Shown here one piece after another: positions 2,253-51,388 of a stretch of 64,000 nt of DNA (position 1 is the stretch's first letter; each line of letters opens with the position of its first letter). Under the pieces are notes generated by a model. It searched no databases and was not told the DNA's origin. It saw only the letters and a program-made list of their open reading frames with translations. Made by a program: the position numbers and the translations under genes. Origin of the DNA: Oceanispirochaeta sp. (lineage in GTDB: Bacteria > Spirochaetota > Spirochaetia > DSM-2461); contig CAXXXD010000003.1 of assembly GCA_963663385.2 (NCBI GenBank), positions 224,001 through 288,000 of the forward strand. The letters are read 5' to 3'.

Positions 2253-2292
2253 GGCTGGTAGAATTCACAAATCCAGAAGAGGTTATTTATTT

Positions 2293-27474: not shown

Positions 27475-27478
27475 TAGT

Positions 27479-36163: not shown

Positions 36164-36413
36164 CTTGATAGATAAGTATATCTTCTGTTTAATAAACGTT
36201 TGAAAAATAATCAGTTTATATCTATTCCTGAATGGATTATATTCTTTTTGTGAAATTGTTAAGACCGTAAAATTATAATTAATTCATATAAATCCCGATA
36301 AATCAGATTTTTGATTCTATTCTCATTGATAAGAATAATTTAGCTAATATCTTTTAATATAATGATATAAGACTATTAAAAAGAGAATCCCGCTTTTTAG
36401 GCAAATTTATAAC

Positions 36414-36459
36414 TTTACAAACAGGGATTTGTGTGATCATAATATGCATACGTATGCAT
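36414..36459 (+). promoter_or_regulatory. Promoter and LacI-type operator O1
   Basis: TTTACA-N18-CATAAT immediately followed by perfect palindrome ATGCATACGTATGCAT (36444-36459). Confidence 0.8.
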
Positions 36460-36502
36460 GTAAATTGAATTGTTTAATTAAAGTATCAAGAGGAATCATG
36501 AA

Positions 36503-37558
36503 ATGAGTGAGCAGATCAGGTTTTCACCGCAAAAGATGGAAGCCTTTATCTTTGAAATTTATCAAAAGGCAGGTATGAGCGATGACGATGCCCATACCTG
36601 TGCGGAATGTACCGTAAAAACAAATTTGTGGGGAGTTGACTCCCATGGAGTGTTGAGGACTCCAGCCTATGTTGACCGGATCCTGAAAGGTGCTGTCAAT
36701 GCTAAAGCATCGGTTCGTTTTCTGAAGGGTGAAGACGGTCCGCTGTCCCTGATGGACGGCGATGCCGGCATGGGGTATGTGGTCGGACAGAAAGCCATGG
36801 AGACTGCCATCTCCAAGGCCAAGACGTTCGGAATCGGCATGGTTATCGTAAAAAACAGCAACCATTTCGGTGCCGCCTCCCTTTTTGCCAGACAGGCGGC
36901 GGAAGTCGGGATGCTTGGACTGGTAACTACCAATGTTATTCCCAATATCGGGATGCCCGGCAACAAAAAATCCGTTACCGGAAACAACCCGATTGCCATG
37001 GCGGCTCCCATGGGCAAAGAGTATCCCTTCTCTCTGGATATCTCCATGAGTGCTGTAGCTGGCGGGAAAATCCTTCTGGCCCAGAAAAAGAATGAGAAGA
37101 TTCCCACAACCTGGGCGATTGATAAGGAAGGAAACCCCACGGACGATCCCATTGCCGGATTTGCGGGAATTCTGCTTCCCGCGGGAATGCATAAAGGACT
37201 GGGGATGTCCCTGTTTATCGACATTCTCACTGGTGTTTTAAGCGGAGGCCCTTTTCTGCAGAACCTGAAGAGCATGTATAAAAACCCGGATGATCCCAGT
37301 GAAACATCCCACCTGTTTATGGTCATGGACCCCGGTTTTTTCCTGGAAAAGGAAGAATTCGATGTCAGGATGAAAGAGTGGGCCCGTATGATCAAGGCCA
37401 CTCCCATGGCCGAAGAAGGGGCGGAGCAGATTATCCCCGGAGAGATCGAATATAACTGCGAGCAGCAGAGAAGGAAAGAGGGACTCCCCATTCCGTCAGA
37501 ACTGGTAAAGGATCTGAATGAACTTTCAGAGAAATTGGGAATGACCGCAAAGCTCTAG
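36503..37558 (+). CDS. Ldh_2 family NAD(P)-dependent oxidoreductase (YiaK/AllD/ComC superfamily)
   Basis: GVDSHG, NSNHFG, GNNPIA, HKGLG, IPGE. Confidence 0.92.
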   Translation: MSEQIRFSPQKMEAFIFEIYQKAGMSDDDAHTCAECTVKTNLWGVDSHGVLRTPAYVDRILKGAVNAKASVRFLKGEDGPLSLMDGDAGMGYVVGQKAMETAISKAKTFGIGMVIVKNSNHFGAASLFARQAAEVGMLGLVTTNVIPNIGMPGNKKSVTGNNPIAMAAPMGKEYPFSLDISMSAVAGGKILLAQKKNEKIPTTWAIDKEGNPTDDPIAGFAGILLPAGMHKGLGMSLFIDILTGVLSGGPFLQNLKSMYKNPDDPSETSHLFMVMDPGFFLEKEEFDVRMKEWARMIKATPMAEEGAEQIIPGEIEYNCEQQRRKEGLPIPSELVKDLNELSEKLGMTAKL

Positions 37559-37612
37559 GAAGCTGAAGCGATCCAGATAGTAATTTTTTTACAAATAGTG
37601 AGGTTTATAAAA

Positions 37613-38527
37613 ATGAAAAAGCAGACTAAATTCAAGTTAGACAAAAGAGACTCCATCTGGTTTCACGAGAACAGTGCGCCTGTTTGTGTCAATTATGCAA
37701 AAGAAGTATGTGACGTGGCCATTCTGCCCATCGGTGCCATTGAACAGCACGCTATTCATGCTCCCACCGGTATGGATACCTTCAATGCTATCGGTATCGC
37801 CGAAAGGGTTGCCAAAAAAACAGGCGCCATGATTCTGCCTTGTCCCATGTACGGATCACACCCCCACCACCACTGGGGAATGCCCGGTACCATTCCCCTG
37901 ACATATGAAACACACATCGGCCTGCTGATGGATATTGTTCGCGGTGCTGCTGTTGCCGGTTACAACAAGTTTATCATCATTTCCGCTCACGGACAGGTTT
38001 CTTCCATGATCGTAGCAACCCACAAACTGGGCATTGAAGGTTTCTTTACCATCTCTTCCACCTGGTATGACTTTCTAAGAGATGACAAAACCGAACTGGA
38101 AGATTATATGTGGCACGCAGACGAAGCGGAAACTTCCGTTGGTCTTTACATGTACCCCGAATGGATCAATATGGATCTGGTAGAAGACGGCGGCGGAACA
38201 GCTCTGGTTGATTCCAAATGGAAAATCGCCCCCGGTCAGGCTGCCGGTGCCGGTATGATGTATCACTTCGAAGGAACCTTCGGTCTCCCCGAAAAAGATG
38301 ACCTGGCTACGGGTGTAATCGGTAATCCCACCAAAGCTACCTACGAAAAGGGAAAAGCCTGTATCGACAAGGTTGTTGATCATTACGCGGAATTCATTGA
38401 AGAAGTAAAATCCAAATACCCCTGTGGAATCAATCCTCTGGGATTCAGAAACCCTATGGGATCCAACAACTCTCATAACATTGTGTACGATAGTGACCAC
38501 GATAGCAAAGGACAGCTGAAAAAATGA
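37613..38527 (+). CDS. Creatininase-family metallohydrolase, resembling 3-dehydro-scyllo-inosose hydrolase (IolN)
   Basis: PIGAIEQH..APTG.DT, YGSHPHHHWGMPGT, HGQ, HADEAETS; IolN likeness is recalled, not searched. Confidence 0.8.
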   Translation: MKKQTKFKLDKRDSIWFHENSAPVCVNYAKEVCDVAILPIGAIEQHAIHAPTGMDTFNAIGIAERVAKKTGAMILPCPMYGSHPHHHWGMPGTIPLTYETHIGLLMDIVRGAAVAGYNKFIIISAHGQVSSMIVATHKLGIEGFFTISSTWYDFLRDDKTELEDYMWHADEAETSVGLYMYPEWINMDLVEDGGGTALVDSKWKIAPGQAAGAGMMYHFEGTFGLPEKDDLATGVIGNPTKATYEKGKACIDKVVDHYAEFIEEVKSKYPCGINPLGFRNPMGSNNSHNIVYDSDHDSKGQLKK

Positions 38528-39351
38528 AATTGAAGGGTAAAGTTGCCGTTATTACCGGCGGTACCAAAGGAATAGGCCTCGGGATAGCTGAGGAATTCAT
38601 TAAGGAAGGTGCCAAAGTATGTATCGGCGGACGGGACCCTGAAACCGGCGCGGAGGGACTGAAAATTCTTCAGGACCTCGGCGGCGAGGCCATGTTCGTA
38701 CCCTGTGACGTGGCTAAGGTCTCTGATCTGCAGAATATACTGGATAAAACAGTGGAAGCTTTCGGCCGGCTGGATATTTACGTGGCCAATGCGGGAATCA
38801 ACGATTCCAATAAAACACACTTTCTGGATATTACCGAAGAGTCCTATGACAGAATCATGGACGTAAACCTCCGGGGAATGTTTTTCGGCGGACAGAGAGC
38901 CGCCCGTATTATGAAAGCCCAGGGCGAGGGGGGGGCCATTATCAATATGTCCTCCGTTAACGCTCACCTGGCGCTCGATTCCCAGATGGTGTATACCGCC
39001 AGTAAGGGAGGCGTTCAGCAGCTTACAAAAGTACAGGCTGTTGCCCTGGCCCCCTACGGGATCAAGGTTAATGCTATGGCTCCCGGTCCAATCGAAACGG
39101 ATCTCATGAGACGGGTTGGTTCGGACAAGCAGCTGATGGATACGATTATTTCCCGGACCCCAATCGGTCGTATCGGCACCACCAAAGAGTGCGGAAGACT
39201 GGCTGTATTCCTGGCCTGTGAAGACTCGGATTTTATCTTTGGTCAGTCTATCTACAACGATGGCGGTCGCGGTTTTCAGGCTTTTCCTAATCCCGGGTAT
39301 AAGACAGTAACCGATGAAGACTATGAAATCCTGATGCAGGCCAAAGGCTGA
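38524..39351 (+). CDS. Short-chain dehydrogenase/reductase (sugar dehydrogenase-like)
   Basis: TGGTKGIG, ANAG, YTASKGG, PGPIET. Confidence 0.93.
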   Translation: MKLKGKVAVITGGTKGIGLGIAEEFIKEGAKVCIGGRDPETGAEGLKILQDLGGEAMFVPCDVAKVSDLQNILDKTVEAFGRLDIYVANAGINDSNKTHFLDITEESYDRIMDVNLRGMFFGGQRAARIMKAQGEGGAIINMSSVNAHLALDSQMVYTASKGGVQQLTKVQAVALAPYGIKVNAMAPGPIETDLMRRVGSDKQLMDTIISRTPIGRIGTTKECGRLAVFLACEDSDFIFGQSIYNDGGRGFQAFPNPGYKTVTDEDYEILMQAKG

Positions 39352-39361
39352 TTCTTATCTA

Positions 39362-39447
39362 ACCCTCACTCCCGGCCTCTCTCAATCTCCCCAAAAGGGG
39401 AGAAGGCAGTATTGATACCCCTCCCTTTGGAGGGGCCGGGAGAGGGG
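39362..39447. repeat. REP-like branched palindromic element
   Basis: Outer CTCCCGGCC/GGCCGGGAG enclosing TCTCCCC-AAAA-GGGGAGA and CCCCTCC-CTTT-GGAGGGG. Confidence 0.55.
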
Positions 39448-39616
39448 AGAATTGTTTTAATCAGATTTTTCTTCCCTTCGCCATCCGGGCTGGTCGGAAG
39501 CAGGTTTTCTGCTTTGGTCATAAACCCAGTTTATTGCTTGAGTATGCATAAGACTCGCCCTTGTATTCGGAGAAGAGGGGGGGAAGGGTATCAATTCAAA
39601 AAAAGGTGGTATTGTT

Positions 39617-40660
39617 ATGTCTACTTTAAGAGAGAGAAATTTCAGACGTCTCCAGGAAAGTATCGACGGAGTCAAGTCGGATGCCCACGCGGTATTCAAT
39701 TACTATACATTCCCGTTTTTTCAATCTGTTACAGGTGTTAACCTGGATGACTTTTTTCATAAACCCGAAGTAGCCCTGAAATGTCAGATAGAGGCGCTTG
39801 ACCAGCTTGAAGGAATCGGTAATCCTGTTCCGGATATGGGTTCGGTTGCCGTATCAAGCGGTTTGGGGGGTATCGTCGGATTTGATGATGCCGGGTTTAT
39901 TCATGTTCAGCCCAATCCGGAAATTGCCGCTGCAACAACGGTGGATGATCTGGACTGGCTGGAGCCGGGAGATCCCTATGCTGACAACTATATGACCAGG
40001 GCTCTTGAAACCCTGCAGTACATGGTGGATAACTGCCCCGATAGGTATAGAGTTAATGCCCATCCCATTATGGGGCCCTATACGGTTGGAGCCAATATCA
40101 GGGGAATAAGTGATTTCTGCGCGGATACCCTGGTAGAGCCGGATCTGGTTAAGAAAATTCTGGATGTGGTTATAGAAACAGAGATACGGTTTTTAAAGGC
40201 CCAGGAAAAAATTCTGGGTAAACTCCATCATGTTCTGGTGGGAGATGACCTCTCAGCTTTTCTGAGCGAACCTGTTTACAGGGAATTTATTCTTCCGGGA
40301 TATCAAAGGATTTTTGCGGAATTTCCTGATACCCAACCCTGGCTGCATAATGATTCTACAGCACGTCATGTGGCACCGGCTATCGGTGATTCCGGAATGG
40401 CAGTCTGGCAGTATCATCCCGGTATATCTCCCCGGGATGCCTTTGAATTAACCAAAGGAAATGTTACTCTGCTGGGTGGATTGAGTCCTCTGGATCTGCA
40501 GAAATGGACCGTAGAAGAGACTTATGATAAGTGTATCGAAGTGCTGAAATCTTTTAACGGAAACAGTAAGTTTGTGCTGGCTGCGGGCGGATCAGTCAAT
40601 CAGGTGCCCAATGCAAACCTGATGGCCATGTTTAAAGCAGCGGACGATTTTAAAATCTGA
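39617..40660 (+). CDS. Uroporphyrinogen decarboxylase/MtaA-CmuA superfamily TIM-barrel protein
   Basis: MGPYT...RG, GDD...LS...EFILP, LHND, LLGGLSP, FVLAAG. Confidence 0.82.
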   Translation: MSTLRERNFRRLQESIDGVKSDAHAVFNYYTFPFFQSVTGVNLDDFFHKPEVALKCQIEALDQLEGIGNPVPDMGSVAVSSGLGGIVGFDDAGFIHVQPNPEIAAATTVDDLDWLEPGDPYADNYMTRALETLQYMVDNCPDRYRVNAHPIMGPYTVGANIRGISDFCADTLVEPDLVKKILDVVIETEIRFLKAQEKILGKLHHVLVGDDLSAFLSEPVYREFILPGYQRIFAEFPDTQPWLHNDSTARHVAPAIGDSGMAVWQYHPGISPRDAFELTKGNVTLLGGLSPLDLQKWTVEETYDKCIEVLKSFNGNSKFVLAAGGSVNQVPNANLMAMFKAADDFKI

Positions 40661-40977
40661 CAGATATAGCAAACAGGAAGGACTCCGCCGGACCGTGATT
40701 GATCAAAGGTCTGGCGGTATTTTTGTGTCCGTAAAAAGGTCTCATATCATTTTGAGGGAAAAGGTGAGGCCTGAGATCATTCAGTGAAAATGGATTTTTT
40801 CCAAACAACAGTAATAAAAAAGCTGCCGTAACGGTCAAGGAGTTGAATACCGGTACAGCAGCCAGGTTGTTTTTTTCATGCAGAGGCCTGGGCCTCTCCC
40901 CGGATCGCCGAACCGGGATATGACCGGATGACAGCACCCCCTTCCGTCCGGGGGGGGGCGGGGGAGCTCAGGGGGGG

Positions 40978-41667
40978 TTAAAAAATAGTCATAAGATGAA
41001 GTACAGTGGTCAGGATATTCTGGAGATGATGAGTCATATAACCCTCCGCTTCCTCGACCTTGTTGTTCAATATCATCTCACCCAGAATAAGGTGTTCTTC
41101 CGCATTTTTCTGGGTTCTGTCGCCCATGGCGGTAACACCTGTCCGGATGCGGGTCCATTTTATATCAATGTCATCGATCAGTTTTTTAAGATAGGGAGAT
41201 TTTGTCATCTCACTGATTGTATTATGAAACCGGGTATCAAGGTTTTCCCAGATTCTGTTCAGTTCCGGATTGATGCCAAAACTGCTGAAGTCTGATTTCA
41301 GGAACAGCTCAATTTCCTCCAGAACCTTCCTGAACTCCTGCTCATCCCCTTCTGTTTTTCGTTCAATGGCCAGACGGACAGTGGTGCACTGCAGGCTGAT
41401 TTTTGCGTCAAAGTACTGAACCAGTTCTTCCGAAGTCGGGCGGTAAATCGTCTTTTTTCCATTATGGTTGATAATCAGACCTTCCTGTTCCAGGACATTG
41501 ATAGCCATGGTCACAGGCGTCCGGCTTACACGCAGTTCCTTCGCAATTTCAATTTCAGAAATTATTTCATCCGGTTTGTATTTGTTATCACAGAAATTCT
41601 GCCTGATCTTTCTGTAAACATGCTCCCATACTTTCTCTTTAACAGGAGTTAACATCTGTTCGTTCAT
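40978..41667 (-). CDS. GntR family regulator (FCD domain)
   Basis: EIEIAKELRVSRTPV wHTH; DTRFH and EEH FCD motifs. Confidence 0.9.
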   Translation of the reverse strand: MNEQMLTPVKEKVWEHVYRKIRQNFCDNKYKPDEIISEIEIAKELRVSRTPVTMAINVLEQEGLIINHNGKKTIYRPTSEELVQYFDAKISLQCTTVRLAIERKTEGDEQEFRKVLEEIELFLKSDFSSFGINPELNRIWENLDTRFHNTISEMTKSPYLKKLIDDIDIKWTRIRTGVTAMGDRTQKNAEEHLILGEMILNNKVEEAEGYMTHHLQNILTTVLHLMTIF

Positions 41668-41884
41668 AGTTACAGCATAATATGCTAAATAGAATTTGAC
41701 AACAGTAATTATGGAAATGTTTGATAATAATTATGATAGAATATTAAAATTATTATATAAGGCATTGCATAAAATCTTATTCAAGCAGTTTTTTTAAGTT
41801 GAATATCGATATAAGTCTGTTAGAACGATGTTAGAAGTCCTCATGTGCTGCATTAATAATAATTATATTAATGCAAAATATAAT

Positions 41885-41944
41885 TTGACACAGAGGATAT
41901 CTCATGCTACTATTTATTAAGCATTCAAATGCATACGTATTCAA
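41885..41944 (+). promoter_or_regulatory. TRAP operon promoter and operator O2
   Basis: TTGACA-N17-TACTAT (extended TG); ATGCATACGTATTCAA at 41929-41944. Confidence 0.8.
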
Positions 41945-41979
41945 GAAAGTTCCATAATTACAAATAGAGGAGGACGTAA

Positions 41980-42597
41980 TTGTTTAAAAAGATTTTTAAA
42001 TGGTTGGATATTAATTTTGAACCAACGGTTATGACGGTTCTTTTTTATGCTATTACCATGCTGATTACCCTTCAGGTTATTCTGAGATTTGTCTTTTCCA
42101 CCGGTTTTTCCTGGGGAGAGGAAGTGGCGCGATTTCTGTTCGTCTGGCTGATGAACTTCAGTATTGCCTATGCAACCCGGAATCAGCGGCATATAAAAAT
42201 TACATATATCATTAATATGTTCAGCGTAAAGGTTCAGAAGATTTTTCTGATACTGTCGGATATGGTATTTCTGATATTTTCCAGCCTGATATTTATGGCT
42301 GCCATAAGGGTCTGTCAGGCGGCAATCAAATATGCCGATATGGCAGTTACCATTGAGGTTTCTCTGAATGTTGTCTATGGCGCGGGAGTTGTCGGATACG
42401 CCCTGATTGTTATCCGCCTGATTCAGACTCTCATATGGAAAATCAGGAATTTTGATGCAGAGATGGACCGCTATGAGAATCGAGGCGGTTCCTATACCGG
42501 TGCAGATAAGATTTTCTTTCTGCCGGAATCAGAAAAAAAAGGCATTGAGAAAGCTGAAAATGCCTGTACGGCAGGAATAAAGGGGGCTGAGGCATGA
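41980..42597 (+). CDS. dctQ: TRAP transporter small permease
   Basis: QVILRFVF..SWGEEVARFLFVWL; 4 TM. Confidence 0.9.
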   Translation: MFKKIFKWLDINFEPTVMTVLFYAITMLITLQVILRFVFSTGFSWGEEVARFLFVWLMNFSIAYATRNQRHIKITYIINMFSVKVQKIFLILSDMVFLIFSSLIFMAAIRVCQAAIKYADMAVTIEVSLNVVYGAGVVGYALIVIRLIQTLIWKIRNFDAEMDRYENRGGSYTGADKIFFLPESEKKGIEKAENACTAGIKGAEA

Positions 42598-43880
42598 CAT
42601 TTGTATTATTCGGTTCTCTTGTGCTGTTGCTTCTGGCAGCGGTTCCCATTGGTATTGCTCTGGGAACCGCATCAATCCTTACGATTTTCACATCCGATCC
42701 CATCAGTATAGAGTCTTTTACGCAGACAATGATCCAGGGGTTGAATTCCTTCCCCCTGATGGCGGTTCCCCTTTTTACTTTTGCCGGTGATATTATGGGG
42801 CGGGGCGGAATATCCAAACGTCTGTTGAATGTTACCGGTGTAATGTTCGGCCGCTTTAAGGGCGGTTTGGGTGTTGTCTCTATTGTTGCCTGTCTGTTTT
42901 TTGCGGCCATTTCCGGAACCGGATCCGCAACTGTTGCGGCTATCGGTCTGATAATGATCCCCGAGATGGTCCGTATGGGATATAATAAAGACTTTTCCGG
43001 TGCTCTGGTGGCAACTGCCGGTACGGTTGGGGTTATCATTCCCCCCAGTATCTGCATGGTTATCTATGCGGTAGCTGCAGGAACTTCTGTAACCGGTATG
43101 TTTATGGCCGGAATAGGCCCCGGACTGCTGGTGGGACTGGCTCTATCCATCTATACAGTTTTCTATTCTGCAAAGAAAGGGTATGAAGGGGATCAGACCC
43201 GCTACACCATGAAAGAAGTAGGGGCTATCTTTCTGGATGCCATTCCAGCACTTCTGGTTCCCGTAATTATTCTGGGCGGAATCTACGGCGGTGTATTTAC
43301 CCCGACAGAAGCGGCAGCCGTTGCGGCGGTATATGGTATTTTTGTCAGTGTTTTTGTCTATAAAGAGGTAAAACTGTCGGAGCTGCCGTTTATCGGATTC
43401 AATTCGGCACTGCTTTGCGCCGCGGTACTGGTTATTATCGGTATTTCATCCGGTTTCGGCCGGATACTGACTATCGCCAATATCCCTACAGCCATAGCCA
43501 ATTTTATTCTGGATATTACAACCAGCAAGTTTCTGATCCTGCTGTTTATCAATATTCTGCTGCTGATTGTGGGAACTTTTATGGAAACAAATGCGTCCAT
43601 AATTATTCTGGTGCCGATTCTGCTGCCTGTTGTTACTTCCCTGGGAGTTAATCCGGTACACTTTGGTGTCATGATGGTATTGAACCTTGCTATCGGTTTT
43701 GTGACACCGCCACTGGGTGCCAACCTTTTTATGGCCTGTCAGATTAGCGATATCAGGTTTGATGACATTGCCAAGGCAATTGTACCCTGGATTCTGGTTA
43801 TGGTAATCGTTCTGATGCTTGTAACCTATATCCCGGCAATTACGATGTGGCTGCCCAAGGTTATGGGTATCCCTATTTAG
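42594..43880 (+). CDS. dctM: TRAP transporter large permease
   Basis: FAAISG, IIPPSI, FTPTEA, TPPLG. Confidence 0.94.
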   Translation: MTFVLFGSLVLLLLAAVPIGIALGTASILTIFTSDPISIESFTQTMIQGLNSFPLMAVPLFTFAGDIMGRGGISKRLLNVTGVMFGRFKGGLGVVSIVACLFFAAISGTGSATVAAIGLIMIPEMVRMGYNKDFSGALVATAGTVGVIIPPSICMVIYAVAAGTSVTGMFMAGIGPGLLVGLALSIYTVFYSAKKGYEGDQTRYTMKEVGAIFLDAIPALLVPVIILGGIYGGVFTPTEAAAVAAVYGIFVSVFVYKEVKLSELPFIGFNSALLCAAVLVIIGISSGFGRILTIANIPTAIANFILDITTSKFLILLFINILLLIVGTFMETNASIIILVPILLPVVTSLGVNPVHFGVMMVLNLAIGFVTPPLGANLFMACQISDIRFDDIAKAIVPWILVMVIVLMLVTYIPAITMWLPKVMGIPI

Positions 43881-43940
43881 ACTGAATGACGGCCGGCTCT
43901 TAAGGGGGGGCGGCTGTAAAAAAATTGTTATTTACCCGGC

Positions 43941-43956
43941 ATGCATACGTATTCAA
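43941..43956 (+). promoter_or_regulatory. Operator O3 upstream of dctP
   Basis: ATGCATACGTATTCAA, identical to O2. Confidence 0.75.
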
Positions 43957-44007
43957 GCCGGATGTAAATATGTTAAAGTAATTATTGAAGGAGAAATGGA
44001 GGAAATT

Positions 44008-45024
44008 ATGAAGAAAATGATGACAGTTATGATGGCATTACTGATGGTGATCGGGCTTTCGACAGCAGTTGCAGAAGGGCAGAAGGAAGGACCTGAAAAA
44101 GTAACAATCAAACTGGCGCATGATAATAATGTCCAGGCTGAAGGGCATCTGGCTTTTATGGAGTTCAAGAAAATCGTTGAAGCCGAATCCGATGGAAGAA
44201 TTGAAGTTCAGATCTACCCCGGCGGACAGCTCGGCAGTGTTCAGGATATGTTTGAACAGACAAGGCGCGGTGATATTCAGATGAGTGTCGGTGCAACAAC
44301 CCTGTTTACACAGACAATTCCCGAGTTTGCTGTATGGGACTCTTTCTATATGTTTGAAGATGCGGCTCATGCCCACAGAGTCCTTGATGGTAAAGCCGGT
44401 CAGGAGCTGATGAAACCCCTGGATAAAATGAATCTGGAAGGAATCGGTTATATGGAGATCGGTTTCAGAAACTTTTCCAACAGCAAAAGAGCCATTGTTG
44501 ATCCTTCGGATGTTGAGGGTCTTAAAATCAGAGGTTACAGCCCCATGCAGATCAAAGCCTGGGAATCAGTCGGATGTTCTCTGACAAACCTTTCCTGGTC
44601 TGAAGTATTTACATCCCTCCAGCAGAATCTGATTGATGGACAGGAATGTGCTACATCCAGTTTCTACAATGCCAAGTTCTACGAAGCTCAGAAATACTGG
44701 TCTTTAACAAGACACATCTATACCAACTGGCTGTGGTATGCCAATAAGGATTTTATGGCAGAACTGTCTGATACTGACAGAGCCCTTATTATGGATGCAG
44801 CCCAAAAGGCCATTGCTCTGGACAGAAAACTGGTTAGTGAAGCGGAAGAGAAAACTCTGGCCATGCTGCCCGGTAACGGTGTAGACGTTAACGAAGTTCC
44901 CCTTGAAACCCGTCTTGCCATGGGTGAAAGAATGAACGGTGCCGTAAGCGCTGAAATCATTGCCAAATGCGGTATTGAAATCTACGATATGGTTCAGGCC
45001 GAAATCGTAGCTGAAAGAAAATAG
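44008..45024 (+). CDS. dctP: TRAP transporter substrate-binding protein
   Basis: Signal peptide; YPGGQLG, GFRN, GLKIR (conserved Arg), LQQNLIDGQE. Confidence 0.93.
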   Translation: MKKMMTVMMALLMVIGLSTAVAEGQKEGPEKVTIKLAHDNNVQAEGHLAFMEFKKIVEAESDGRIEVQIYPGGQLGSVQDMFEQTRRGDIQMSVGATTLFTQTIPEFAVWDSFYMFEDAAHAHRVLDGKAGQELMKPLDKMNLEGIGYMEIGFRNFSNSKRAIVDPSDVEGLKIRGYSPMQIKAWESVGCSLTNLSWSEVFTSLQQNLIDGQECATSSFYNAKFYEAQKYWSLTRHIYTNWLWYANKDFMAELSDTDRALIMDAAQKAIALDRKLVSEAEEKTLAMLPGNGVDVNEVPLETRLAMGERMNGAVSAEIIAKCGIEIYDMVQAEIVAERK

Positions 45025-45031
45025 TAATAAA

Positions 45032-45240
45032 ACCCCTTTCCTCAGGGAGAGGGGTGGATTAAGGGAGAAGTGTTCTTACCAACCAGCTCTTCCGGGTGAT
45101 TGATTAAAAAACCTTCCCCCCGACCCCTCCAAAAAGGGGAAATTGTCCAGTTGCAGCGCTAACTGTAGGATTATATGCCCCAGCACTCCTTCGATGGGGG
45201 AGACTGGGAAAAAGGAATTAATAGAGAAGGGTTAGGGAAC
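45032..45240. repeat. Degenerate REP-like C/G-run palindromes
   Basis: ACCCCTTTCC-TCAG-GGAGAGGGGT and further CCCCTCC-AAAA-AGGGG type hairpins. Confidence 0.45.
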
Positions 45241-45305
45241 CGGTAATCTATGGAGTTAATAAGGGATATCTGATATTATTGTTATATCCCTCAATGGATG
45301 ATGTG

Positions 45306-46346
45306 ATGATGAAAAACCTTGATGTTAAACAGAAAAAGAAACGAATATCCTCCGTAGATGTCGCCAGAGAAGCCGGTGTTTCCCAGTCTACTGTTTCGAG
45401 GGTATTTAATAATTCCAAAGGGGTGAATGTTTCTCCAGATACATTTAAAAGGATTATGGCTGCTGCGGAAAAGCTGAATTATCGGCCCAGTATCCTGGCC
45501 CGGGGGCTGCAGCAGCAGGCTACCAACATTATTGGTATTGTTACTCATAACTTCGAAAGTCCATTTCAGACTGAATCACTTAACTGTTTTTCAAGGGAAT
45601 TGCAAAAAATCGGGTATACAACCCTGCTGCTGAACCTCTCTTCCGATGCTCATCTGGATGATGTGCTGCCCAGAGCTCTGGAATATCAGGTGGATGGCAT
45701 CGTGCTGACTTCTGTTTTTCTGACTTCCCATCTGGCTGATGACTGTCGGGATTATAATACACCGGTGATTCAGTATAACCGCTATTCAGAGAATCAGAAC
45801 GTAGATTCGGTTTGTCTGGATAACCGGATGGCTGGCGAGGATGTCGCCCGTTATCTTGTGGAAACAGGGCATCGGAGGATTGCCTATATATCCGGTTCCA
45901 ATGCATCTTCTACAAGCCGGGATCGGCGGGAAGGGCTGACCCTGGGACTGGAGAAAAATGGTCTTGTATTATTTGATGAGTTTGCCGGCGGTTTCGGGTA
46001 TGATACAGGTATGAAGGCGTCGGATAAGCTATTGGCCGGGAAGGAACAGATCCCCGATGCGGTTTTCTGCATTACAGATAAAGTGGCCGCGGGTTTTATT
46101 GACCGGGCACAGAGTGCTTATGGTATCCGGATTCCCGATGATATATCTGTTGTCGGATTTGATGACATTGAAATTGCGTCCTGGCCGCGCTATGACCTGA
46201 CAACAGTTGCCCAGCCGATAGAGAAGATGGTTAAAGAAACAATCGGAATTCTTATGGATTCCATTAAATATGAGAAGCGGAAGGTCTCCAGAAAACTGAT
46301 ACCCGGTCCGCTGGTAAAGAGATCTACAGTAAAAGACAGACGCTGA
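45306..46346 (+). CDS. LacI family transcriptional regulator
   Basis: DVAREAGVSQSTVSRV, LNYRP..ARGL, IPDDISVVGFDD; start uncertain. Confidence 0.93.
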   Translation: MMKNLDVKQKKKRISSVDVAREAGVSQSTVSRVFNNSKGVNVSPDTFKRIMAAAEKLNYRPSILARGLQQQATNIIGIVTHNFESPFQTESLNCFSRELQKIGYTTLLLNLSSDAHLDDVLPRALEYQVDGIVLTSVFLTSHLADDCRDYNTPVIQYNRYSENQNVDSVCLDNRMAGEDVARYLVETGHRRIAYISGSNASSTSRDRREGLTLGLEKNGLVLFDEFAGGFGYDTGMKASDKLLAGKEQIPDAVFCITDKVAAGFIDRAQSAYGIRIPDDISVVGFDDIEIASWPRYDLTTVAQPIEKMVKETIGILMDSIKYEKRKVSRKLIPGPLVKRSTVKDRR

Positions 46347-46386
46347 TACAGTATTTTTTACTGACTATGGAGTAGTTGAATACATA

Positions 46387-46406
46387 TTGTGCATACGTAT
46401 GCACAA
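46387..46406 (+). promoter_or_regulatory. Operator O4 upstream of the transaldolase-like operon
   Basis: Perfect 20-bp palindrome TTGTGCATACGTATGCACAA. Confidence 0.8.
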
Positions 46407-46479
46407 ATTAGTAAGTAAGGTAATAGGATTCGAAAACCGGATCATCAGATAGAAGAGATTAATTTAGGAGAGTAATACA

Positions 46480-47520
46480 ATGAAAAAAGGTTATTTTCAC
46501 AGAGTCAACAAGCAGACACCCACCCGTTTCTGGATAAATAATGTAACAAGAGAAGAAGCGGATATTGCATTGGAAGCCGGTGCAGTCGGCTGTACCCAGA
46601 ACCCTTCCTATGTTTACAAGATGCTGACCAATAATCAGGAGAAATCCTTCGCCTTTGAAAAACTGGATGCCATTCTGAAGGATAGACCCGGCGATGAGGA
46701 TATGGTTCAGGAGATCCTGCAGCAGCAGCTGGTCGGGAATATAGCCAAGCACTTTATGCCCCTGTATGAAGCCAGCCAGGGTAAAGCCGGTTACGTCAGT
46801 GTTCAGGGTAATCCCTTTAAGGAAGATATGGAAAATATCATCCGCAACGCCCGATTCAACCGGGAAGCCGGTCCCAACATTATGGCCAAGGTACCCGCTA
46901 CAGAAGAAGGTCTTGAAGCAATTGAAGTTCTTCTGGCAGAGGGAACCCCCATTAACGCTACAGAAGTTATGGGTGTAAGACAGGCCATGGATGTTTGTGA
47001 CGTATATGACCGGGTGGCTAAAAAAGTAAAAGATATGCCAGTTGTTTACTTCTCTCACATTACCGGTATTTACGATGAATACCTTCAGAACTATGTTAAA
47101 GAGAAGGGGATAGAAATCAGTCAGGATACACTCTGGCAGGCCGGTATGGTCATTGCCAAGAAAACGCATCGTCTGGTGAAAGAGCGGAACAGCGCTGTCG
47201 GATTTATCGGGGGCGGTGCCAGAGGGCTGCACCACTTTACCGAAATGGTTGGAGCTGATGCCTGCATCACAATCAACTGGACAGGTACTGCGGATAAGCT
47301 GATTGAACAGGATGCACCAGTAATAGACCGCTTCCATGCTCCTGTAGCGGAATCCGTTCTGGATGAATGTCTGGAGAAAATGGAAGATTTCAGCCGCGGC
47401 TGGTACGTTAACGGTCTGAAACCTGCCGAGTATGAAGAGTTCGGTCCGGTCGTCTTGTTCCGTGAATCCTTTGAAAAAGCCTGGGGCGAAGCCAGAAAGC
47501 TTATAAAGGACAGAATGTAA
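46480..47520 (+). CDS. Transaldolase/FSA family protein, divergent
   Basis: GCTQNPS, MAKVPATEEGLEAI (Schiff-base Lys), INAT. Confidence 0.85.
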   Translation: MKKGYFHRVNKQTPTRFWINNVTREEADIALEAGAVGCTQNPSYVYKMLTNNQEKSFAFEKLDAILKDRPGDEDMVQEILQQQLVGNIAKHFMPLYEASQGKAGYVSVQGNPFKEDMENIIRNARFNREAGPNIMAKVPATEEGLEAIEVLLAEGTPINATEVMGVRQAMDVCDVYDRVAKKVKDMPVVYFSHITGIYDEYLQNYVKEKGIEISQDTLWQAGMVIAKKTHRLVKERNSAVGFIGGGARGLHHFTEMVGADACITINWTGTADKLIEQDAPVIDRFHAPVAESVLDECLEKMEDFSRGWYVNGLKPAEYEEFGPVVLFRESFEKAWGEARKLIKDRM

Positions 47521-47585
47521 TTGTCAGGGGCCGGCCTGAAAGGCGCTGTATCAGGCCAGCCCATCTGAGGATTTAGGAAAATGCT

Positions 47586-48476
47586 GTGATGAGAAACAAA
47601 AGAAATCTGGAATGGGAAAGTTTTGATCCCCGCATGGATGAATATACGGGAAAGAGAGCCTCTCTGGAGACATTGGCGGATGGGTTCCGTTTTCTGGAAG
47701 GTCCCGCCTGGAACCGGAAAGAACAGAAGCTCTATTTCAGTGATATTCCGGGTAACGGAATCTATACCTGGTCCGAAAAGGCAGGTGTGGAGCTCTACAA
47801 GCCCAACAGCTATCTGGCCAACGGCAATACTCTGGTTAATGATCGCTATCTGCTGACTTGTGAACACGGGACAAGCCGTGTAACAAAGACGGATTTGACA
47901 GACGGAACCTATACGGTCCTGGCCGATCGTTACGAAGGAAAAGAGCTGAACAGCCCCAACGATGTAGTGGCTGATGCGGGGGGACATGTCTATTTCACCG
48001 ATCCCGAAGCCGGAAGGGCTCACCGGGTGGGGATTCCCCGCCCCAGGCCGCTGGATTTTATGGGTGTATTCAGGATTGACCGGTTGACAGGCGCGGTCAC
48101 CCTGCTGGAAAAAGAGATGGAATTTCCCAACGGTTTATGTTTTTCACCGGATGGAAAAACCCTCTATGTCAATGACAGCCGGAAAGCTAATATCCTGGCT
48201 TTTGATGTGGATGAAAAGGGCGGTTTGGAAAACCGGCGGATTTTTTCCGAGTTTCAGTATGACGGTCCCGGTTGTCTGGACGGTATGAAATGTATGAAGG
48301 ACGGAACAATCCTCTGTACAGCTCCGAAAGGGATCTATGTTCTGGATAAAACGGGTGTAAAACTGGGAAGAATGTTCGTCCCGGAGGTTGCTGCCAATTT
48401 CACATGCGGTGATTCAGAAGAAGAGCTGTATCTGACGGCGACATCCTCCGTATACAGGATTCTGTTAAAAAGTTAG
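47586..48476 (+). CDS. SMP-30/gluconolactonase family protein
   Basis: EGPAW, NSPNDV, YFTDP, PNGLCFSPD, DGM. Confidence 0.92.
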   Translation: MMRNKRNLEWESFDPRMDEYTGKRASLETLADGFRFLEGPAWNRKEQKLYFSDIPGNGIYTWSEKAGVELYKPNSYLANGNTLVNDRYLLTCEHGTSRVTKTDLTDGTYTVLADRYEGKELNSPNDVVADAGGHVYFTDPEAGRAHRVGIPRPRPLDFMGVFRIDRLTGAVTLLEKEMEFPNGLCFSPDGKTLYVNDSRKANILAFDVDEKGGLENRRIFSEFQYDGPGCLDGMKCMKDGTILCTAPKGIYVLDKTGVKLGRMFVPEVAANFTCGDSEEELYLTATSSVYRILLKS

Positions 48477-48504
48477 ACGAATTGATAATGATGGAGAAAG
48501 TAAA

Positions 48505-49932
48505 ATGATTAAATCAGAAAAACCGAGGGTTGGATTTATCACATTTGGTGACCACCGCCCTGATATGTGGGAGAAGGTCTTCTCTCATAAAACTATCCCC
48601 CTGCATACCAAAGCGCTGGAACTGATGGGGAAGATGGATATTGAACTGATTGTTGCCGAGGACTTTGTCAGAACCCGGGATCAGATTAATGAAGCCATTG
48701 ACGCCTTGAAGGGTAAGGATATTGATGTTCTTGTAGCTCATATTCCCTGCTGGACCAGTCCCAACCTGGTTGTACACGGTATTCAGAGAATGGGTATTTA
48801 TACCATCCTCCTGGGGAACCGGGATCCCGGTACTCACGGCTGTGTGGGACTGCTTGGTGCCGCCGGTGCTCTGGGACAGATTGACTTTCCCCACCGCTGT
48901 ATACGGGAAGAGTACGATGTAGACGTATACAATGAAAAAGTGCTGCCTCTTATTAAAGCAGTATCTGTTAAGGAAAAACTGAAAGGTTCCGTGATGGGGC
49001 TGTTCGGCGGCCGTTCCATCGGTATCGACACCAGTCAGTTTGACCCCATGCAGTGGAAGGCCAAATTCGGCATCGACAGCGAACACCTGGATCAGGTGGA
49101 AATTATCCGTCTGGCTAAAGAGATTCCCCGGGAAAGAATCGACAAAATGCGGACCTGGATCGAAAAGAGCGCCAAAGAGGTCCGGTACAATGATGATAAG
49201 CTGACAAAAGAAAAATTTGATTTTCAGCTCGCCTGCTACCTGGCCACCAAGGATATGGTAAAAGAGTGGGGCATGGACTATGTGTCCCTCAAATGTATGC
49301 ATGAACTGTCGAATTCCTATGTTCCCCAGTGTATGACCCAGGCATTCCTGGCCAACCACGAAGATGCGGAAGGACCGAAAACTCCCACACCCATCGCCTG
49401 TGAAGCCGATGCGGACGGAGCTCTTACACAACAGATACTGCGTATCCTTTCCGGCGGAAAACCCACTTTTTTTGCGGATGTCAGCCACATCGATAACGAA
49501 AAGAACATTATGTACTGTGTGAACTGCGGAGCCATCTGCGTCTACTATGCCGGCCGCAGTCAGAATACAGAAGAGAATCTGAAAAATATCGTTATCAATC
49601 AGTCTGTCCGTCCCGGCGGTGGAGGAATTACATACTTCAATGCTTCAACTGGTCCCATGCAGCTGGCCCGCCTCTACCGGAAGGGCGGAAAGTACAAAAT
49701 GGCCATTATCCCCTGTGATGCGGTACAGCCGACTCAGGAAATGCTGGATGAGTTTATAGAAGCCCGCGGTCCCCACCAGCTGCCGACCCTTTTTGCCAAG
49801 TGCAACCTGGATATAGAGAGGTTTATCAATGAGTATGGTTCCAATCATATTTCAGGTGTTGAAGGAATGTATCTGAACGAACTGCTGGAAGTTTGTAATG
49901 TTCTGGATATCGAAGCGGAAGTTTTTGCATAA
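48505..49932 (+). CDS. L-fucose/L-arabinose isomerase family protein
   Basis: ACEADADG (Mn-ligand E), FAD, NCG, GSNH. Confidence 0.85.
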   Translation: MIKSEKPRVGFITFGDHRPDMWEKVFSHKTIPLHTKALELMGKMDIELIVAEDFVRTRDQINEAIDALKGKDIDVLVAHIPCWTSPNLVVHGIQRMGIYTILLGNRDPGTHGCVGLLGAAGALGQIDFPHRCIREEYDVDVYNEKVLPLIKAVSVKEKLKGSVMGLFGGRSIGIDTSQFDPMQWKAKFGIDSEHLDQVEIIRLAKEIPRERIDKMRTWIEKSAKEVRYNDDKLTKEKFDFQLACYLATKDMVKEWGMDYVSLKCMHELSNSYVPQCMTQAFLANHEDAEGPKTPTPIACEADADGALTQQILRILSGGKPTFFADVSHIDNEKNIMYCVNCGAICVYYAGRSQNTEENLKNIVINQSVRPGGGGITYFNASTGPMQLARLYRKGGKYKMAIIPCDAVQPTQEMLDEFIEARGPHQLPTLFAKCNLDIERFINEYGSNHISGVEGMYLNELLEVCNVLDIEAEVFA

Positions 49933-49946
49933 AAAGAGGTAAACAA

Positions 49947-50726
49947 ATGTTAGACAAGAATAAAAACCGGGTAAAAGACATATTGAAAAAAGGCGGGAAA
50001 GTTTCATCAGGCTGGCTGCAGGCCGGCAGCCCTGTAACCGCTGAAGTTATGGCGGAAGCTGGATTTGATGTACTTATGATCGATCTGGAACACGGTCCGG
50101 GGAATATAATGACAACGATCAACCAGATTATGGCTATGAAAAACGAGAAAGCGGTCCCTTTCTGCCGGGCTCCCTGGAATGATTTTGTACAGTTGAAAAA
50201 AATCCTGGATGCCGGTGTATACGGCATGCTGGTTCCCTATGTTAACACTAAAGAAGAAGTGGAAGCGGCTGTTGCGGCTGTAACCTATCCCACGGAAGGA
50301 ATCCGCGGTGTCGCGGGAAGTCCCCGGGCCGCCCACTACGGCAATAATTCCATGGACTATCTGAAATCAGCCAACGATGAGGTATTCCTGATGACAGCGG
50401 TGGAAACACCGGAAGCGGTAAAAAATATTGATGAAATTCTGTCCGTTGACAGGCTGGACGGTATCTTTATCGGCCCCATGGACCTGGCCACCAATATGGG
50501 ATTTTTCGGTAATCCCAAAGCTCCCGAAGTACAGGAAGCGATTAAGAAAGTGGAAGAGAAGGTATTTGCCTCCGGTAAAATCCTGGCTACCGTTGCCGGA
50601 ACCTGGGATGATGCCAAAGCAAAGTATGAAAGGGGTTACAGTCTGATCAACTTCTTTTCCGATACGACCACCCTTGGAGCTGTCGCCCGGGAACGGGTTA
50701 AACTGTTTAACGAATTCAACAAATAA
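49947..50726 (+). CDS. HpcH/HpaI family 2-keto-3-deoxy-acid aldolase
   Basis: DLEHG, LDAG..G.LVP, VET, FIGPMDL. Confidence 0.92.
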   Translation: MLDKNKNRVKDILKKGGKVSSGWLQAGSPVTAEVMAEAGFDVLMIDLEHGPGNIMTTINQIMAMKNEKAVPFCRAPWNDFVQLKKILDAGVYGMLVPYVNTKEEVEAAVAAVTYPTEGIRGVAGSPRAAHYGNNSMDYLKSANDEVFLMTAVETPEAVKNIDEILSVDRLDGIFIGPMDLATNMGFFGNPKAPEVQEAIKKVEEKVFASGKILATVAGTWDDAKAKYERGYSLINFFSDTTTLGAVARERVKLFNEFNK

Positions 50727-50785
50727 GGATCCTCCTTTTCCGGGGGAGGTATTATAATCTGCCTCTCCCGGTTTTTTAATAAGCT

Positions 50786-51388
50786 ATGAATATAAAAGAT
50801 TTAAAAGAACAGGTACTGGAAGTGTGTCGGATGCTGCCTGAATGCCGTTTGGTTACCGGTATGGCCGGAGAGGTCAGCGCAAGGGATCCCTTCAGCGGCC
50901 GGATTATCATGCAGCCGGAGGGAGTTCCCTATCAAAATATGCGTGTTGAAGATATCCTTGTTCTCAATCCCGACGGGTCTGTTTTTGAAGGGGATCCCGA
51001 CAGATCTCCCCGTGTTGAAGCATCTACTCATCTTGAGCTGTACAAGTGCTATCCGTGTATTAATGGGATCGTCCATACTCATGCCAAATATGTCAATATT
51101 CTCTCAAGTCAAATGGCTGTCATTCCCTGCGGTATAACATCCCTGGGGCGGAAACTGCTTCTCAGAGGGGTGGAAGTTCTGGAATATGTGGATAACGGTA
51201 CCCGGGAACTGGCGGAAAACATCGTCCCCGCTTTTAAAAAAGGGGTAGCTGCCGCTGTTCGGAACCACGGTCCCTTTACAGCGGGGGAAACCCTCCAGCT
51301 GGCCCTGGACCGGGCCATTATTCTGGAGGAAATTTGCGAAATCTATTATAAATCCTCCCTGCTGGGGATACCTTCTCTTCTGGATTAG
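50786..51388 (+). CDS. Class II aldolase/adducin family protein, divergent
   Basis: E..TH, VHTH, RNHG Zn ligands, LEE. Confidence 0.88.
   Translation: MNIKDLKEQVLEVCRMLPECRLVTGMAGEVSARDPFSGRIIMQPEGVPYQNMRVEDILVLNPDGSVFEGDPDRSPRVEASTHLELYKCYPCINGIVHTHAKYVNILSSQMAVIPCGITSLGRKLLLRGVEVLEYVDNGTRELAENIVPAFKKGVAAAVRNHGPFTAGETLQLALDRAIILEEICEIYYKSSLLGIPSLLD

Follow-up and report, generated by a model that had tools for sequence, protein, structure and literature searches.

Which compound can be degraded by a catabolic gene cluster that encodes a transporter, dehydrogenases, an isomerase, a lactonase and aldolases, and neither a kinase nor a dehydratase? The question is raised by a 15-kb cluster (positions 36414-51388) in a 64,000-nucleotide stretch of contig CAXXXD010000003.1 of Oceanispirochaeta sp. 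(assembly GCA_963663385.2, positions 224,001 to 288,000), hereafter called the window. An earlier reading made from the letters alone, here called the original prediction, had viewed the cluster as a single regulon for an undescribed, phosphate-free pathway acting on an anionic sugar or cyclitol derivative. We find that the cluster belongs to a widespread, uncharacterised, essentially kinase-free family of gene clusters of anaerobes. The core of the prediction is partly supported and stands with three corrections: it gains a probable B12-dependent demethylation, it loses the class II aldolase, and a concrete chemistry, the hydrolytic opening of a carbon ring, is tentatively proposed for it.

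A co-regulated gene cluster

Families were called by profile searches against Pfam and NCBIfam, with the equivalog cut-offs of the latter. All 14 open reading frames (ORFs) of the cluster were assigned (Table 1), in agreement with every enzyme family named in the prediction, and none of them reached an NCBIfam equivalog cut-off. As had been claimed, kinase, phosphotransferase system, glycosidase and dehydratase families are absent from the 14 proteins; the CMP kinase gene that precedes the cluster (35555-36106) is a housekeeping gene. The GC content of the cluster is not deviant.

The palindrome TGCATACGTATGCA, searched for with at most 2 mismatches, occurs at four sites (expected number 0.05; four or more in none of 100 shuffles) and nowhere else in the 5.3-Mb genome, so that the four shared operators of the prediction are confirmed. 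They stand 37-77 bp 5' of the genes for Ldh_2, DctQ, DctP and a transaldolase-like (TAL-like) enzyme, with promoter-like sites abutting operators 1 and 2, and they head the units Ldh_2-IolN-SDR(-URO-D), DctQM, DctP and TAL-SGL-isomerase-HpcH, where SDR denotes a short-chain dehydrogenase/reductase, URO-D a protein of the uroporphyrinogen decarboxylase fold and SGL the lactonase. No operator was found upstream of the LacI, GntR or class II aldolase genes. The class II aldolase gene is counted outside the regulon because of this and because a strong terminator-like hairpin (50740-50771) separates it from HpcH; the claim of one regulon thus holds for the four operator-headed units and not for these three genes. 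The URO-D gene lies 3' of the SDR gene, from which it is separated by 265 bp of GC-rich sequence, and lacks an operator of its own. We count it inside the regulon because its orthologues carry the same operator, both in the nearest relative of the cluster (locus L005), where the gene stands 4.6 kb off on the opposite strand with the operator upstream, and in another genome (L145), where a stand-alone copy has a perfect palindrome 36 bp upstream.

At the level of sequence, both a repeated palindromic operator and a LacI-family gene are present, as in a LacI-type regulon, and the LacI protein is the presumed binder of the four operators. The same operator 14-mer was found upstream of cluster genes in seven other loci from three phyla, namely L005, five loci of Desulfobacterota (5' of the lactonase operon) and one of Chloroflexota (5' of LacI and of IolN). 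Its recurrence across phyla indicates that the repressor-operator pair travels with the cluster. A second candidate regulatory element is an AT-rich direct repeat of 26 nt (36359-36384, 41727-41752 and 41803-41828; 73-77% identical) upstream of the Ldh_2 and DctQ operators, which might be a site for the GntR/FCD regulator.

Spread and composition of the cluster family

The isomerase of the cluster, which has 480 relatives at E <=1e-10 among 8000 candidates scored, was used as a marker. A scan of one genome per species yielded 149 relatives, of which the best 80 loci were kept (43 of them at least 15 kb long); their ORFs were called, clustered and labelled, and 72 representatives of neighbour families (32 + 40) were profile-scanned. 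The best named relatives come from Marispirochaeta and Spirochaetia, and L005 (Oceanispirochaeta sp.) has an isomerase with 88% identity. In the sample of related genomes, the isomerase gene turned up in 1 of 10 others from the genus, 0 of 26 others from the family and 1 of 24 from other families, a patchy occurrence which indicates that the cluster is accessory. The hosts comprise Spirochaetia, Anaerolineae/Chloroflexota, Desulfobacterota, Actinomycetota, Planctomycetota, Gammaproteobacteria and two Clostridia.

The genes of the family recur in the 80 loci with very different frequencies: IolN-like hydrolase (61 loci), Ldh_2 (60), SDR (55), HpcH (50), a clade of URO-D proteins designated MT1 (48), LacI (37), lactonase (36), TAL-like enzyme (11) and class II aldolase (3). 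Ldh_2, the IolN-like hydrolase, SDR, isomerase, URO-D and HpcH form its core, often with the lactonase, while the TAL-like enzyme and the class II aldolase are lineage add-ons. Transport is provided by tripartite ATP-independent periplasmic (TRAP) systems in 16 loci and by an ABC system with an SBP_bac_1 protein in 15, both being present in one locus. Kinases are not routine companions of the cluster, a point on which the prediction depended: FGGY or DUF1537 kinases occur in only 6 of the 80 loci, and PGK, found in 4 further loci, reflects the housekeeping gap-pgk synteny. PGK/GAPDH-like genes beside the spirochaete clusters were also considered as pathway genes and ruled out (the GAPDH encoded in the window, 57948-58955, shares 85% identity with the one beside the cluster in L026), and a neighbour cluster labelled unk354 proved to be an artefact, an ORF called antisense to the IolN gene. 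No sugar-acid dehydratase family was found among the 72 representatives; an extended SDR of the epimerase/dehydratase family is present in two loci. Taken as a whole, the cluster is very probably a real, conserved and co-regulated unit, and its core is likely to be phosphate-free.

It could be argued that one repressor governs at least two modules with no relation to each other (Ldh_2/IolN/SDR and TAL/lactonase/isomerase/HpcH), which act on different compounds and do not form a single pathway: the gene order is shuffled among the spirochaete loci, the TAL-like enzyme, the class II aldolase and the type of transporter vary, and a second regulator, GntR, is present. We regard this as improbable, as Ldh_2, the IolN-like hydrolase and the isomerase occur together in 55 of the 80 loci across phyla, usually in one block with the order Ldh_2-IolN-SDR-isomerase-URO-D (MT1)-HpcH, and one operator type covers all four units and is kept in three phyla.

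Transport and core enzymes

The TRAP solute-binding protein DctP keeps both arginines that bind the ligand's carboxylate (equivalents of Arg152 and Arg173), while the equivalent of Asn213 is a Cys (residue roles according to the portion of PMC11668362 available). Both carboxylate Arg residues being kept, an anionic substrate is likely, as the prediction had it. The combination of TRAP system, Ldh_2 reductase and AraD-like class II protein resembles the yiaK-S cluster of E. coli for 2,3-diketo-L-gulonate, the more so as a kinase gene stands beside the class II gene in locus L008. However, the scores against the corresponding models are low (YiaK: 163.2 bits, cut-off 316; YiaN: 271.2, cut-off 800; YiaM: 34.9, cut-off 260), LyxK, SgbH (OMPDC-like) and SgbU are missing from the window, and the AraD-like gene of our cluster is outside the operon and its product has lost the phosphate pocket.

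The creatininase-family hydrolase finds its best NCBIfam match in IolN (NF041098, 156.6 bits, cut-off 245), and in the ESM Atlas only in generic creatininase clusters. IolN is part of the oxidative-hydrolytic inositol pathway (IolG, IolM, IolN, IolO) that Rodionova and co-workers reportedly described in Thermotoga maritima in 2013. The upper part of that pathway is likewise kinase-free, and the ring of a 2-hydroxy-1,3-diketone is opened there by IolN; the resulting keto acid bears an HOCH2-CO- end that subsequently undergoes isomerisation or epimerisation, as in the route proposed below. Unlike it, our cluster does not reach the IolN equivalog level and has no GFO_IDH_MocA, zinc alcohol dehydrogenase (Zn-ADH) or AP_endonuc_2 protein among its 14 ORFs, hence no dehydrogenases of the IolG/IolM type and no IolO. 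It adds the fucose-isomerase fold, Ldh_2, a lactonase, a pyruvate aldolase and the link to corrinoid methyltransferases, and it probably ends at pyruvate and a C4 acid instead of tagaturonate.

For Ldh_2, the nearest NCBIfam model is L-sulfolactate dehydrogenase (269 bits, cut-off 500) and the top match in the PDB is 2x06, a sulfolactate dehydrogenase (234.7 bits). The nearest NCBIfam model for the isomerase is SftI, the sulfoquinovose isomerase (65.6 bits, cut-off 700); a PDB sequence search with the isomerase returned nothing at E <=0.01. These matches raise the possibility of a sulfonate route akin to the sulfo-TAL and sulfo-ED (sulfo-Entner-Doudoroff) pathways, with sulfoquinovose, 2,3-dihydroxypropane-1-sulfonate (DHPS) or sulfolactate as the substrate. 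Like the cluster, those pathways act on non-phosphorylated sugars and employ a fucose-isomerase-like isomerase, a transaldolase fold, an SDR, a lactonase and an HpcH-type aldolase, to which a sulfolactate-dehydrogenase-like Ldh_2 could be added. Histidinol-dehydrogenase-family genes, which we liken to HpsN, occur in 13 loci. TRAP systems are also capable of carrying sulfonates (IseP; PMC11668362, in the portion available). Nonetheless, we consider a sulfonate substrate very improbable: the scores are far under the cut-offs, sulfogluconate dehydratase, desulfonating enzymes and sulfite exporters are absent from the window and the scanned neighbours, the cluster encodes no sulfolactaldehyde dehydrogenase/reductase or other aldehyde dehydrogenase, the TAL-like enzyme is confined to 11 of the 80 loci and, unlike that of sulfo-TAL, has Asn/Gln at the catalytic Asp/Glu positions, and the corrinoid link would be left unexplained. 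With all scores under the equivalog cut-offs, the statement of the prediction that the cluster matches neither the Thermotoga inositol nor the yiaK-S nor the sulfoquinovose routes is upheld.

The URO-D-fold protein and methyl transfer

A PDB sequence search with the URO-D protein gave nothing at E <=0.01. Its structural model (pLDDT, predicted local distance difference test, 95.6) has as top Foldseek match the methyltransferase MtaA (4ay7, TM-score 0.81/0.83), with HemE close behind. At the zinc position of MtaA, where we take the metal-binding motif to be H-x-C, it has H244-N-D246. The protein is probably a corrinoid-dependent methyltransferase, which in turn makes a methylated substrate probable.

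In a tree, URO-D proteins of the window type form a separate small clade (96 homologues) apart from MT1, and the two types never occur together (0 of 80 loci). The window type was found in 8 of 300 other genomes of the class. The window has no gene of the MT1 clade, the best match in the genome being 34-35% identical. In locus L074, a 31%-identical URO-D domain with the same motif occupies the slot after the isomerase and is fused to B12-binding_2 and B12-binding domains. A corrinoid protein is encoded in 17 of the 80 loci, all of which have MT1. Further neighbours of the core are a pterin-binding methyltransferase (14 loci), RACo, the reductive activator of corrinoid proteins (7), MetE-like proteins (6), MTHFR (3), and the MTHFR C-terminal domain and DUF1638 (2-3 each). 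The sole RACo gene of the Oceanispirochaeta genome and the gene of its best corrinoid protein both lie in the window, 7 and 11 kb upstream of the cluster; the latter protein is 46% identical to the corrinoid protein of the related loci. Neither gene adjoins the cluster or has an operator.

The corrinoid O-demethylases of anaerobes (e.g. Odm/Vdm, Mtv, Mto) consist of methyltransferase I, a corrinoid protein, methyltransferase II and an activating enzyme. The window offers a URO-D-fold methyltransferase, a B12-binding protein and RACo, and its relatives add the pterin methyltransferase and MTHFR. In contrast to the known systems, our genes are part of a catabolic regulon of sugar-like character, the window URO-D comes from a clade of its own with H-N-D, no methyltransferase II is linked to the cluster, nor is the substrate known to be aromatic. 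On balance, we favour the view that removal of a methyl group belongs to the pathway.

A few further observations concern the methyl-transfer genes of this genome. Genes for an aldose 1-epimerase, the corrinoid protein, a PocR/AraC regulator and RACo follow each other in a row (24001-29320, minus strand), an arrangement that connects the B12 methyl-carrier module with sugar metabolism. The genome has 29 URO-D-family matches but only a single RACo and a single clear corrinoid protein that stands alone. Among the 20 regions around URO-D paralogues that were scanned (L104-L123), at least 12 have parts of sugar-type ABC transporters within three genes; AraC regulators are often found nearby, and individual regions also have rhamnose isomerase, alpha-L-fucosidase, GH130, and ROK or FGGY genes. 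This suggests that many substrate-specific methyltransferases share one B12 carrier.

The pyruvate aldolase and the end product

The HpcH protein of the window is most similar to the NCBIfam model of GarL (221 bits, cut-off 393) and also to HpaI, both of which act on dicarboxylates. In L074, HpcH was not found within 10 kb, and a 223-aa RraA-like protein occupies the slot after the URO-D gene, beside Ldh_2; in L065, whose locus ends early downstream, an RraA-like protein also stands beside Ldh_2. These two proteins are the only ones to pass NF006731 (aldolase of 4-carboxy-4-hydroxy-2-oxoadipate (CHA)/oxaloacetate decarboxylase; 203.1 bits for L074 and 223.7 for L065, cut-off 179), and HpcH and a LigK-type RraA-like protein were never seen in the same locus among the 80. 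We read this as a non-orthologous swap, in which a LigK-type CHA aldolase appears to replace HpcH in one locus, perhaps two, and which points to a last intermediate of the CHA type. The same compound (or its hydroxymethyl analogue), cleaved to pyruvate and oxaloacetate, would link the cluster to the lower part of the protocatechuate 4,5-cleavage and gallate pathways (LigK/GalC). Unlike these, the cluster has no dioxygenase, tautomerase or hydratase genes, its hosts are strict anaerobes, and the aldolase of the window has the HpcH fold and is not RraA-like.

The similarity to GarL could also be accommodated by the main rival of a ring-opening route, the non-phosphorylative catabolism of a linear sugar acid such as a hexuronate, an aldarate or a keto-deoxy sugar acid (e.g. 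the products of unsaturated uronates). Here the isomerase would be uronate isomerase or KduI-like, SDR and lactonase would produce an aldarate, a GarL-like HpcH would release pyruvate and tartronate semialdehyde, and Ldh_2 would act on the C3 product. The solved homologues of DctP bind sugar acids, the SDR passes the cut-off of the glucose-1-dehydrogenase subfamily (231.1 bits, cut-off 215), and a LacI regulator and a sugar-isomerase fold are present. We nevertheless judge a linear acid to be unlikely, given that neither the window nor the 72 neighbour representatives include a dehydratase, that the near-universal pair of Ldh_2 and IolN-like hydrolase as well as the URO-D/corrinoid link would remain without explanation, and that an aldolase of the LigK type, specialised for tertiary-alcohol substrates, replaces HpcH in L074.

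In two spirochaete loci (L009, 12474-15614; L015, 17580-19333) HpcH is followed by split transketolase genes, in L009 with a RuBisCO-like protein in the same region.

The TAL-like enzyme and the class II aldolase

The prediction held that the two enzymes whose families normally take sugar phosphates have both lost residues of the phosphate pocket. For the class II aldolase this is correct: in comparison with AraD, N28 is changed to E, K42 to Q, S44 to E and S74/S75 to P/R-V, positions that we take to form the phosphate pocket of AraD/FucA (Asn, Lys, Ser-Gly, Ser-Ser), while the metal ligands (H97, H99, H161 and E78) are kept. As evidence of a route designed to be phosphate-free it is poor. The gene lies behind a terminator and has no operator, its nearest NCBIfam models are AraD-type epimerases, and the pocket residues N, K and S are changed only in the window copy and a 99%-identical twin, but kept in all 9 other aligned homologues, including that of L037. 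The only four close homologues among 5.8 billion proteins (49-54% identity) also belong to these nine. All three class II aldolase genes of the 80 loci go with a rhamnulokinase-like FGGY gene, which directly follows in L008 and L037 (365 and 322 bits) and in L013 forms a fused or truncated aldolase-kinase ORF. Since the orthologues keep both the pocket and the FGGY neighbour, the ancestral module was presumably phosphorylative and the window copy lost its kinase; this copy is probably a degenerate remnant or a repurposed one. The place held by the rhamnulokinase-like gene in the orthologous loci is occupied in the window by genes of a DUF6364 protein and a PIN-domain protein (51587-52307, 3' of the class II aldolase gene), likely a toxin-antitoxin pair.

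The TAL-like enzyme represents a distinct family (103 representative clusters at E <=1e-30), and all its scores against the NCBIfam TAL/FSA models are below the cut-offs. K137, which aligns with the Schiff-base Lys of the KVPAT motif of transaldolases in the PDB, is invariant in 42 family members, as are Q109, N41 and T161. With the roles of the catalytic Asp/Glu pair and of the phosphate-binding Arg residues presumed from E. coli TalB (FSA has Gln for the Glu), the catalytic pair is changed family-wide (Asp to Asn20/21, Glu to Gln109). One canonical Arg is gone (GIFDE as opposed to GRLDD in a paralogue), while the second, R248, is nearly invariant. Thus, the predicted loss of pocket residues applies to one Arg only, and the main change concerns the catalytic pair. 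Genes for SnoaL-like proteins are present in 1 of the 11 TAL-like loci. We speculate that the enzyme might cleave a ring-opened 3-deoxy-ketose or serve as a Schiff-base hydratase.

A second divergent TAL-fold gene, with Gln at the Glu position and both Arg kept, is found in locus L124 (C3:431711-435508), between an AraC regulator and an aldehyde dehydrogenase whose nearest model is SauS, the acylating sulfoacetaldehyde dehydrogenase (429 bits, cut-off 600).

A possible ring-opening route

The following LacI-repressed, TRAP-fed route, reasoned from the families involved, is in our opinion possible in its entirety, although its chances fall somewhat short of even. An anionic, methylated cyclic polyol or ketone would be imported by the TRAP system, and the URO-D methyltransferase would transfer the methyl group of its methyl (enol) ether to the corrinoid protein, the gene of which lies 11 kb upstream. 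The IolN-like enzyme would then hydrolytically open a ring 2-hydroxy-1,3-diketone (of the 3,5-didehydroquinate type, C7). Retro-Claisen cleavage of the IolN type would leave an HOCH2-CO- end, which the isomerase would turn into an aldehyde, and SDR followed by the lactonase would oxidise the aldehyde, or its lactol, via a lactone to a 2-hydroxy acid; alternatively, the SDR could be a ring dehydrogenase. Ldh_2 would make a 4-hydroxy-2-oxo acid of the CHA type, to be cleaved by HpcH to pyruvate and oxaloacetate or a related C4 keto acid. No step would require ATP, and 3,5-didehydroquinate taken through this sequence would yield CHA atom for atom. A dehydratase would not be needed because the C7 carbocycle has two ring CH2 groups. 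The compound 4-deoxygadusol has the same ring as a 4-O-methyl enol ether, in which CH2OH takes the place of COOH, and a single corrinoid-dependent demethylation would convert it to the substrate of the hydrolase. From there the two core dehydrogenases would suffice, and the CH2OH group could be oxidised by the products of the histidinol-dehydrogenase-family genes of the 13 loci mentioned above.

The opening of a ring to an acid of the CHA type is, when taken by itself, again a tentative proposal, to which we give a little less than an even chance. Candidate substrates are quinate- or dehydroquinate-like acids and methoxy-cyclohexenones of the 4-deoxygadusol, gadusol or mycosporine type, any one of which is unlikely to be the right one when named alone. 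It is a similarly long shot that the cluster encodes the first O2-free route, without an aromatic intermediate, for the C7 carbocycles made by cyclases of the dehydroquinate-synthase type, be they the methoxy-cyclohexenone cores of marine sunscreens (including mycosporine-like amino acids) or quinate-like acids. The attraction of a C7 carbocycle is that it would give each core gene one job and would account for the missing kinase and dehydratase. To our knowledge, the non-aromatising fermentation of quinate-like acids has been known physiologically for decades, without genes.

Several points weigh against this scheme. The chemistry is reasoned from family precedents, and ring cleavage by the IolN-like enzyme is an analogy, given the sub-threshold score. 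Quinate would need two further ring oxidations, for which the cluster has just one SDR; near none of the loci was a quinate/shikimate dehydrogenase or a dehydroquinase found. LacI regulators and the fucose-isomerase fold are typical of sugar loci, and the model has no secure place for the TAL-like enzyme. The CHA-aldolase swap rests on two related Desulfobacterales loci, with the absence of HpcH established only for L074, and the two RraA-like proteins stay below the stricter model TIGR02798 (183 and 208 bits for L074 and L065, cut-off 304.5). As for demethylation, no pterin methyltransferase is linked to the window URO-D, the Pterin_bind matches of the genome being two frames only (311 aa, FolP-like, and 858 aa, MetH-like), and 7 of 12 places with a window-type URO-D gene are housekeeping contexts without corrinoid genes. 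Finally, the nearest solved TRAP binding proteins take sugar acids (pantoate, erythronate, 2-keto-3-deoxygluconate (KDG)), not ring acids (PMC11668362, in the portion available).

A variant with the same hydrolytic end would start from methoxylated aromatic acids: syringate or 3-O-methylgallate would be O-demethylated to gallate by the corrinoid system, and hydration of its keto tautomer (3,5-didehydroshikimate) would lead into the path to CHA. Aryl methyl ether demethylases combine a URO-D-family MT1, a corrinoid protein, a pterin methyltransferase and RACo, and genes matching this design are seen in the related loci, one of which (L035) comes from Eubacterium aggregans, presumably an O-demethylating acetogen. 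Proteins of the SnoaL/NTF2 fold are encoded in 22 loci, CHA is a product of the aerobic gallate pathway, and two dehydrogenases, as in the core, would suffice from gallate. This variant is in our view quite improbable: by our estimate, hydration of gallate without reduction would cost the aromaticity and be far uphill, genes for a gallate decarboxylase, reductase or transhydroxylase were not seen, SnoaL-like genes are absent from the window, and the isomerase and LacI point to sugar-like intermediates. In addition, no paper on such a route was found in the limited literature collection searched. A phloroglucinol-type route was dropped, as the dihydrophloroglucinol cyclohydrolase belongs to the 'cyclase' family and not to the creatininase family (PMC10470551, in the portion available), and no link to the mlp methyltransferase clusters was found in the available portion of Kountz and Balskus (PMC10418091).

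Returning to the ring-opening route, searches of the same limited collection for IolN relatives, corrinoid methyltransferases with methylated sugars, mycosporine or gadusol catabolism (including PMC12904256), genes of anaerobic quinate/shikimate fermentation, and an anaerobic gallate/CHA route retrieved no description of the cluster or the route. If the proposal is true, a gene cluster that is spread in anoxic sediments and mats among Spirochaetia, Chloroflexota, Desulfobacterota, Actinomycetota and other groups would be assigned a function, and anaerobic carbon cycling would gain a hydrolytic, ATP-free opening of six-membered carbon rings. Orphan URO-D-fold enzymes, in turn, would be given a first physiological context, as possible B12-dependent demethylases that act on non-aromatic substrates. 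With a unique operator, a LacI protein and a TRAP binding protein at hand, the question of the substrate is directly testable.

Features of the locus and neighbouring sequences

Table 1. Annotated features of the cluster and of the corrinoid-related genes upstream of it (window coordinates).
Feature	Position	Strand	Evidence or remark
Operator 1, LacI-type, perfect palindrome	36445-36458		45 bp upstream of Ldh_2; promoter-like site 36414-36443 abuts
Ldh_2-family 2-hydroxyacid dehydrogenase	36503-37558	+	Pfam 380.7 bits; nearest sulfolactate/malate dehydrogenases
Creatininase-family hydrolase, nearest IolN (3-dehydro-scyllo-inosose hydrolase)	37598-38527	+	Pfam, NCBIfam
Classical SDR, glucose-1-dehydrogenase-like	38524-39351	+	Pfam, NCBIfam
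URO-D-fold protein, probable corrinoid-dependent methyltransferase	39617-40660	+	Pfam URO-D 81.3 bits, structure model
GntR/FCD regulator, divergent from DctQ	40978-41667	-	Pfam; 62% orthologue in L005
Operator 2	41930-41943		37 bp upstream of DctQ; promoter-like site 41885-41913
TRAP membrane subunit DctQ	41980-42597	+	Pfam, NCBIfam
TRAP membrane subunit DctM	42594-43880	+	Pfam, NCBIfam
Operator 3	43942-43955		41 bp upstream of DctP
TRAP solute-binding protein DctP	43996-45024	+	Pfam, alignment to solved relatives
LacI-family repressor, presumed binder of the four operators	45279-46346	+	Pfam, NCBIfam
Operator 4, perfect palindrome	46390-46403		77 bp upstream of TAL-like gene
Divergent transaldolase/FSA-fold enzyme (TAL_FSA)	46480-47520	+	Pfam
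SMP-30/gluconolactonase-family (SGL) lactonase	47586-48476	+	Pfam
Short fucose/arabinose-isomerase-family aldose-ketose isomerase, which marks the cluster family	48505-49932	+	Pfam, NCBIfam
HpcH/HpaI class II pyruvate aldolase, nearest GarL and HpaI	49947-50726	+	Pfam, NCBIfam
Terminator-like hairpin, 12-bp stem, 8 GC pairs, T-run; ends TAL-to-HpcH operon	50740-50771	+	
Class II aldolase/AraD-like protein	50786-51388	+	outside operon
Corrinoid (B12-binding) protein, candidate methyl carrier	25143-25952	-	genome's best B12-binding match; outside cluster
RACo-type reductive activator of corrinoid proteins	27479-29320	-	only one in genome; outside cluster

The region is flanked by genes for a protein with an FGE-sulfatase domain (2251-3954) and for a 1084-aa protein with LVIVD repeats (54518-57772), both seemingly unrelated to the cluster. 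The gaps between the operons contain GC-rich inverted-repeat elements (39352-39600, 40880-40975 and 45030-45135) with runs such as CTCCCGGCC...GGCCGGGAG and GGGGAGAGGGG, which are possibly REP-like repeats or terminators.

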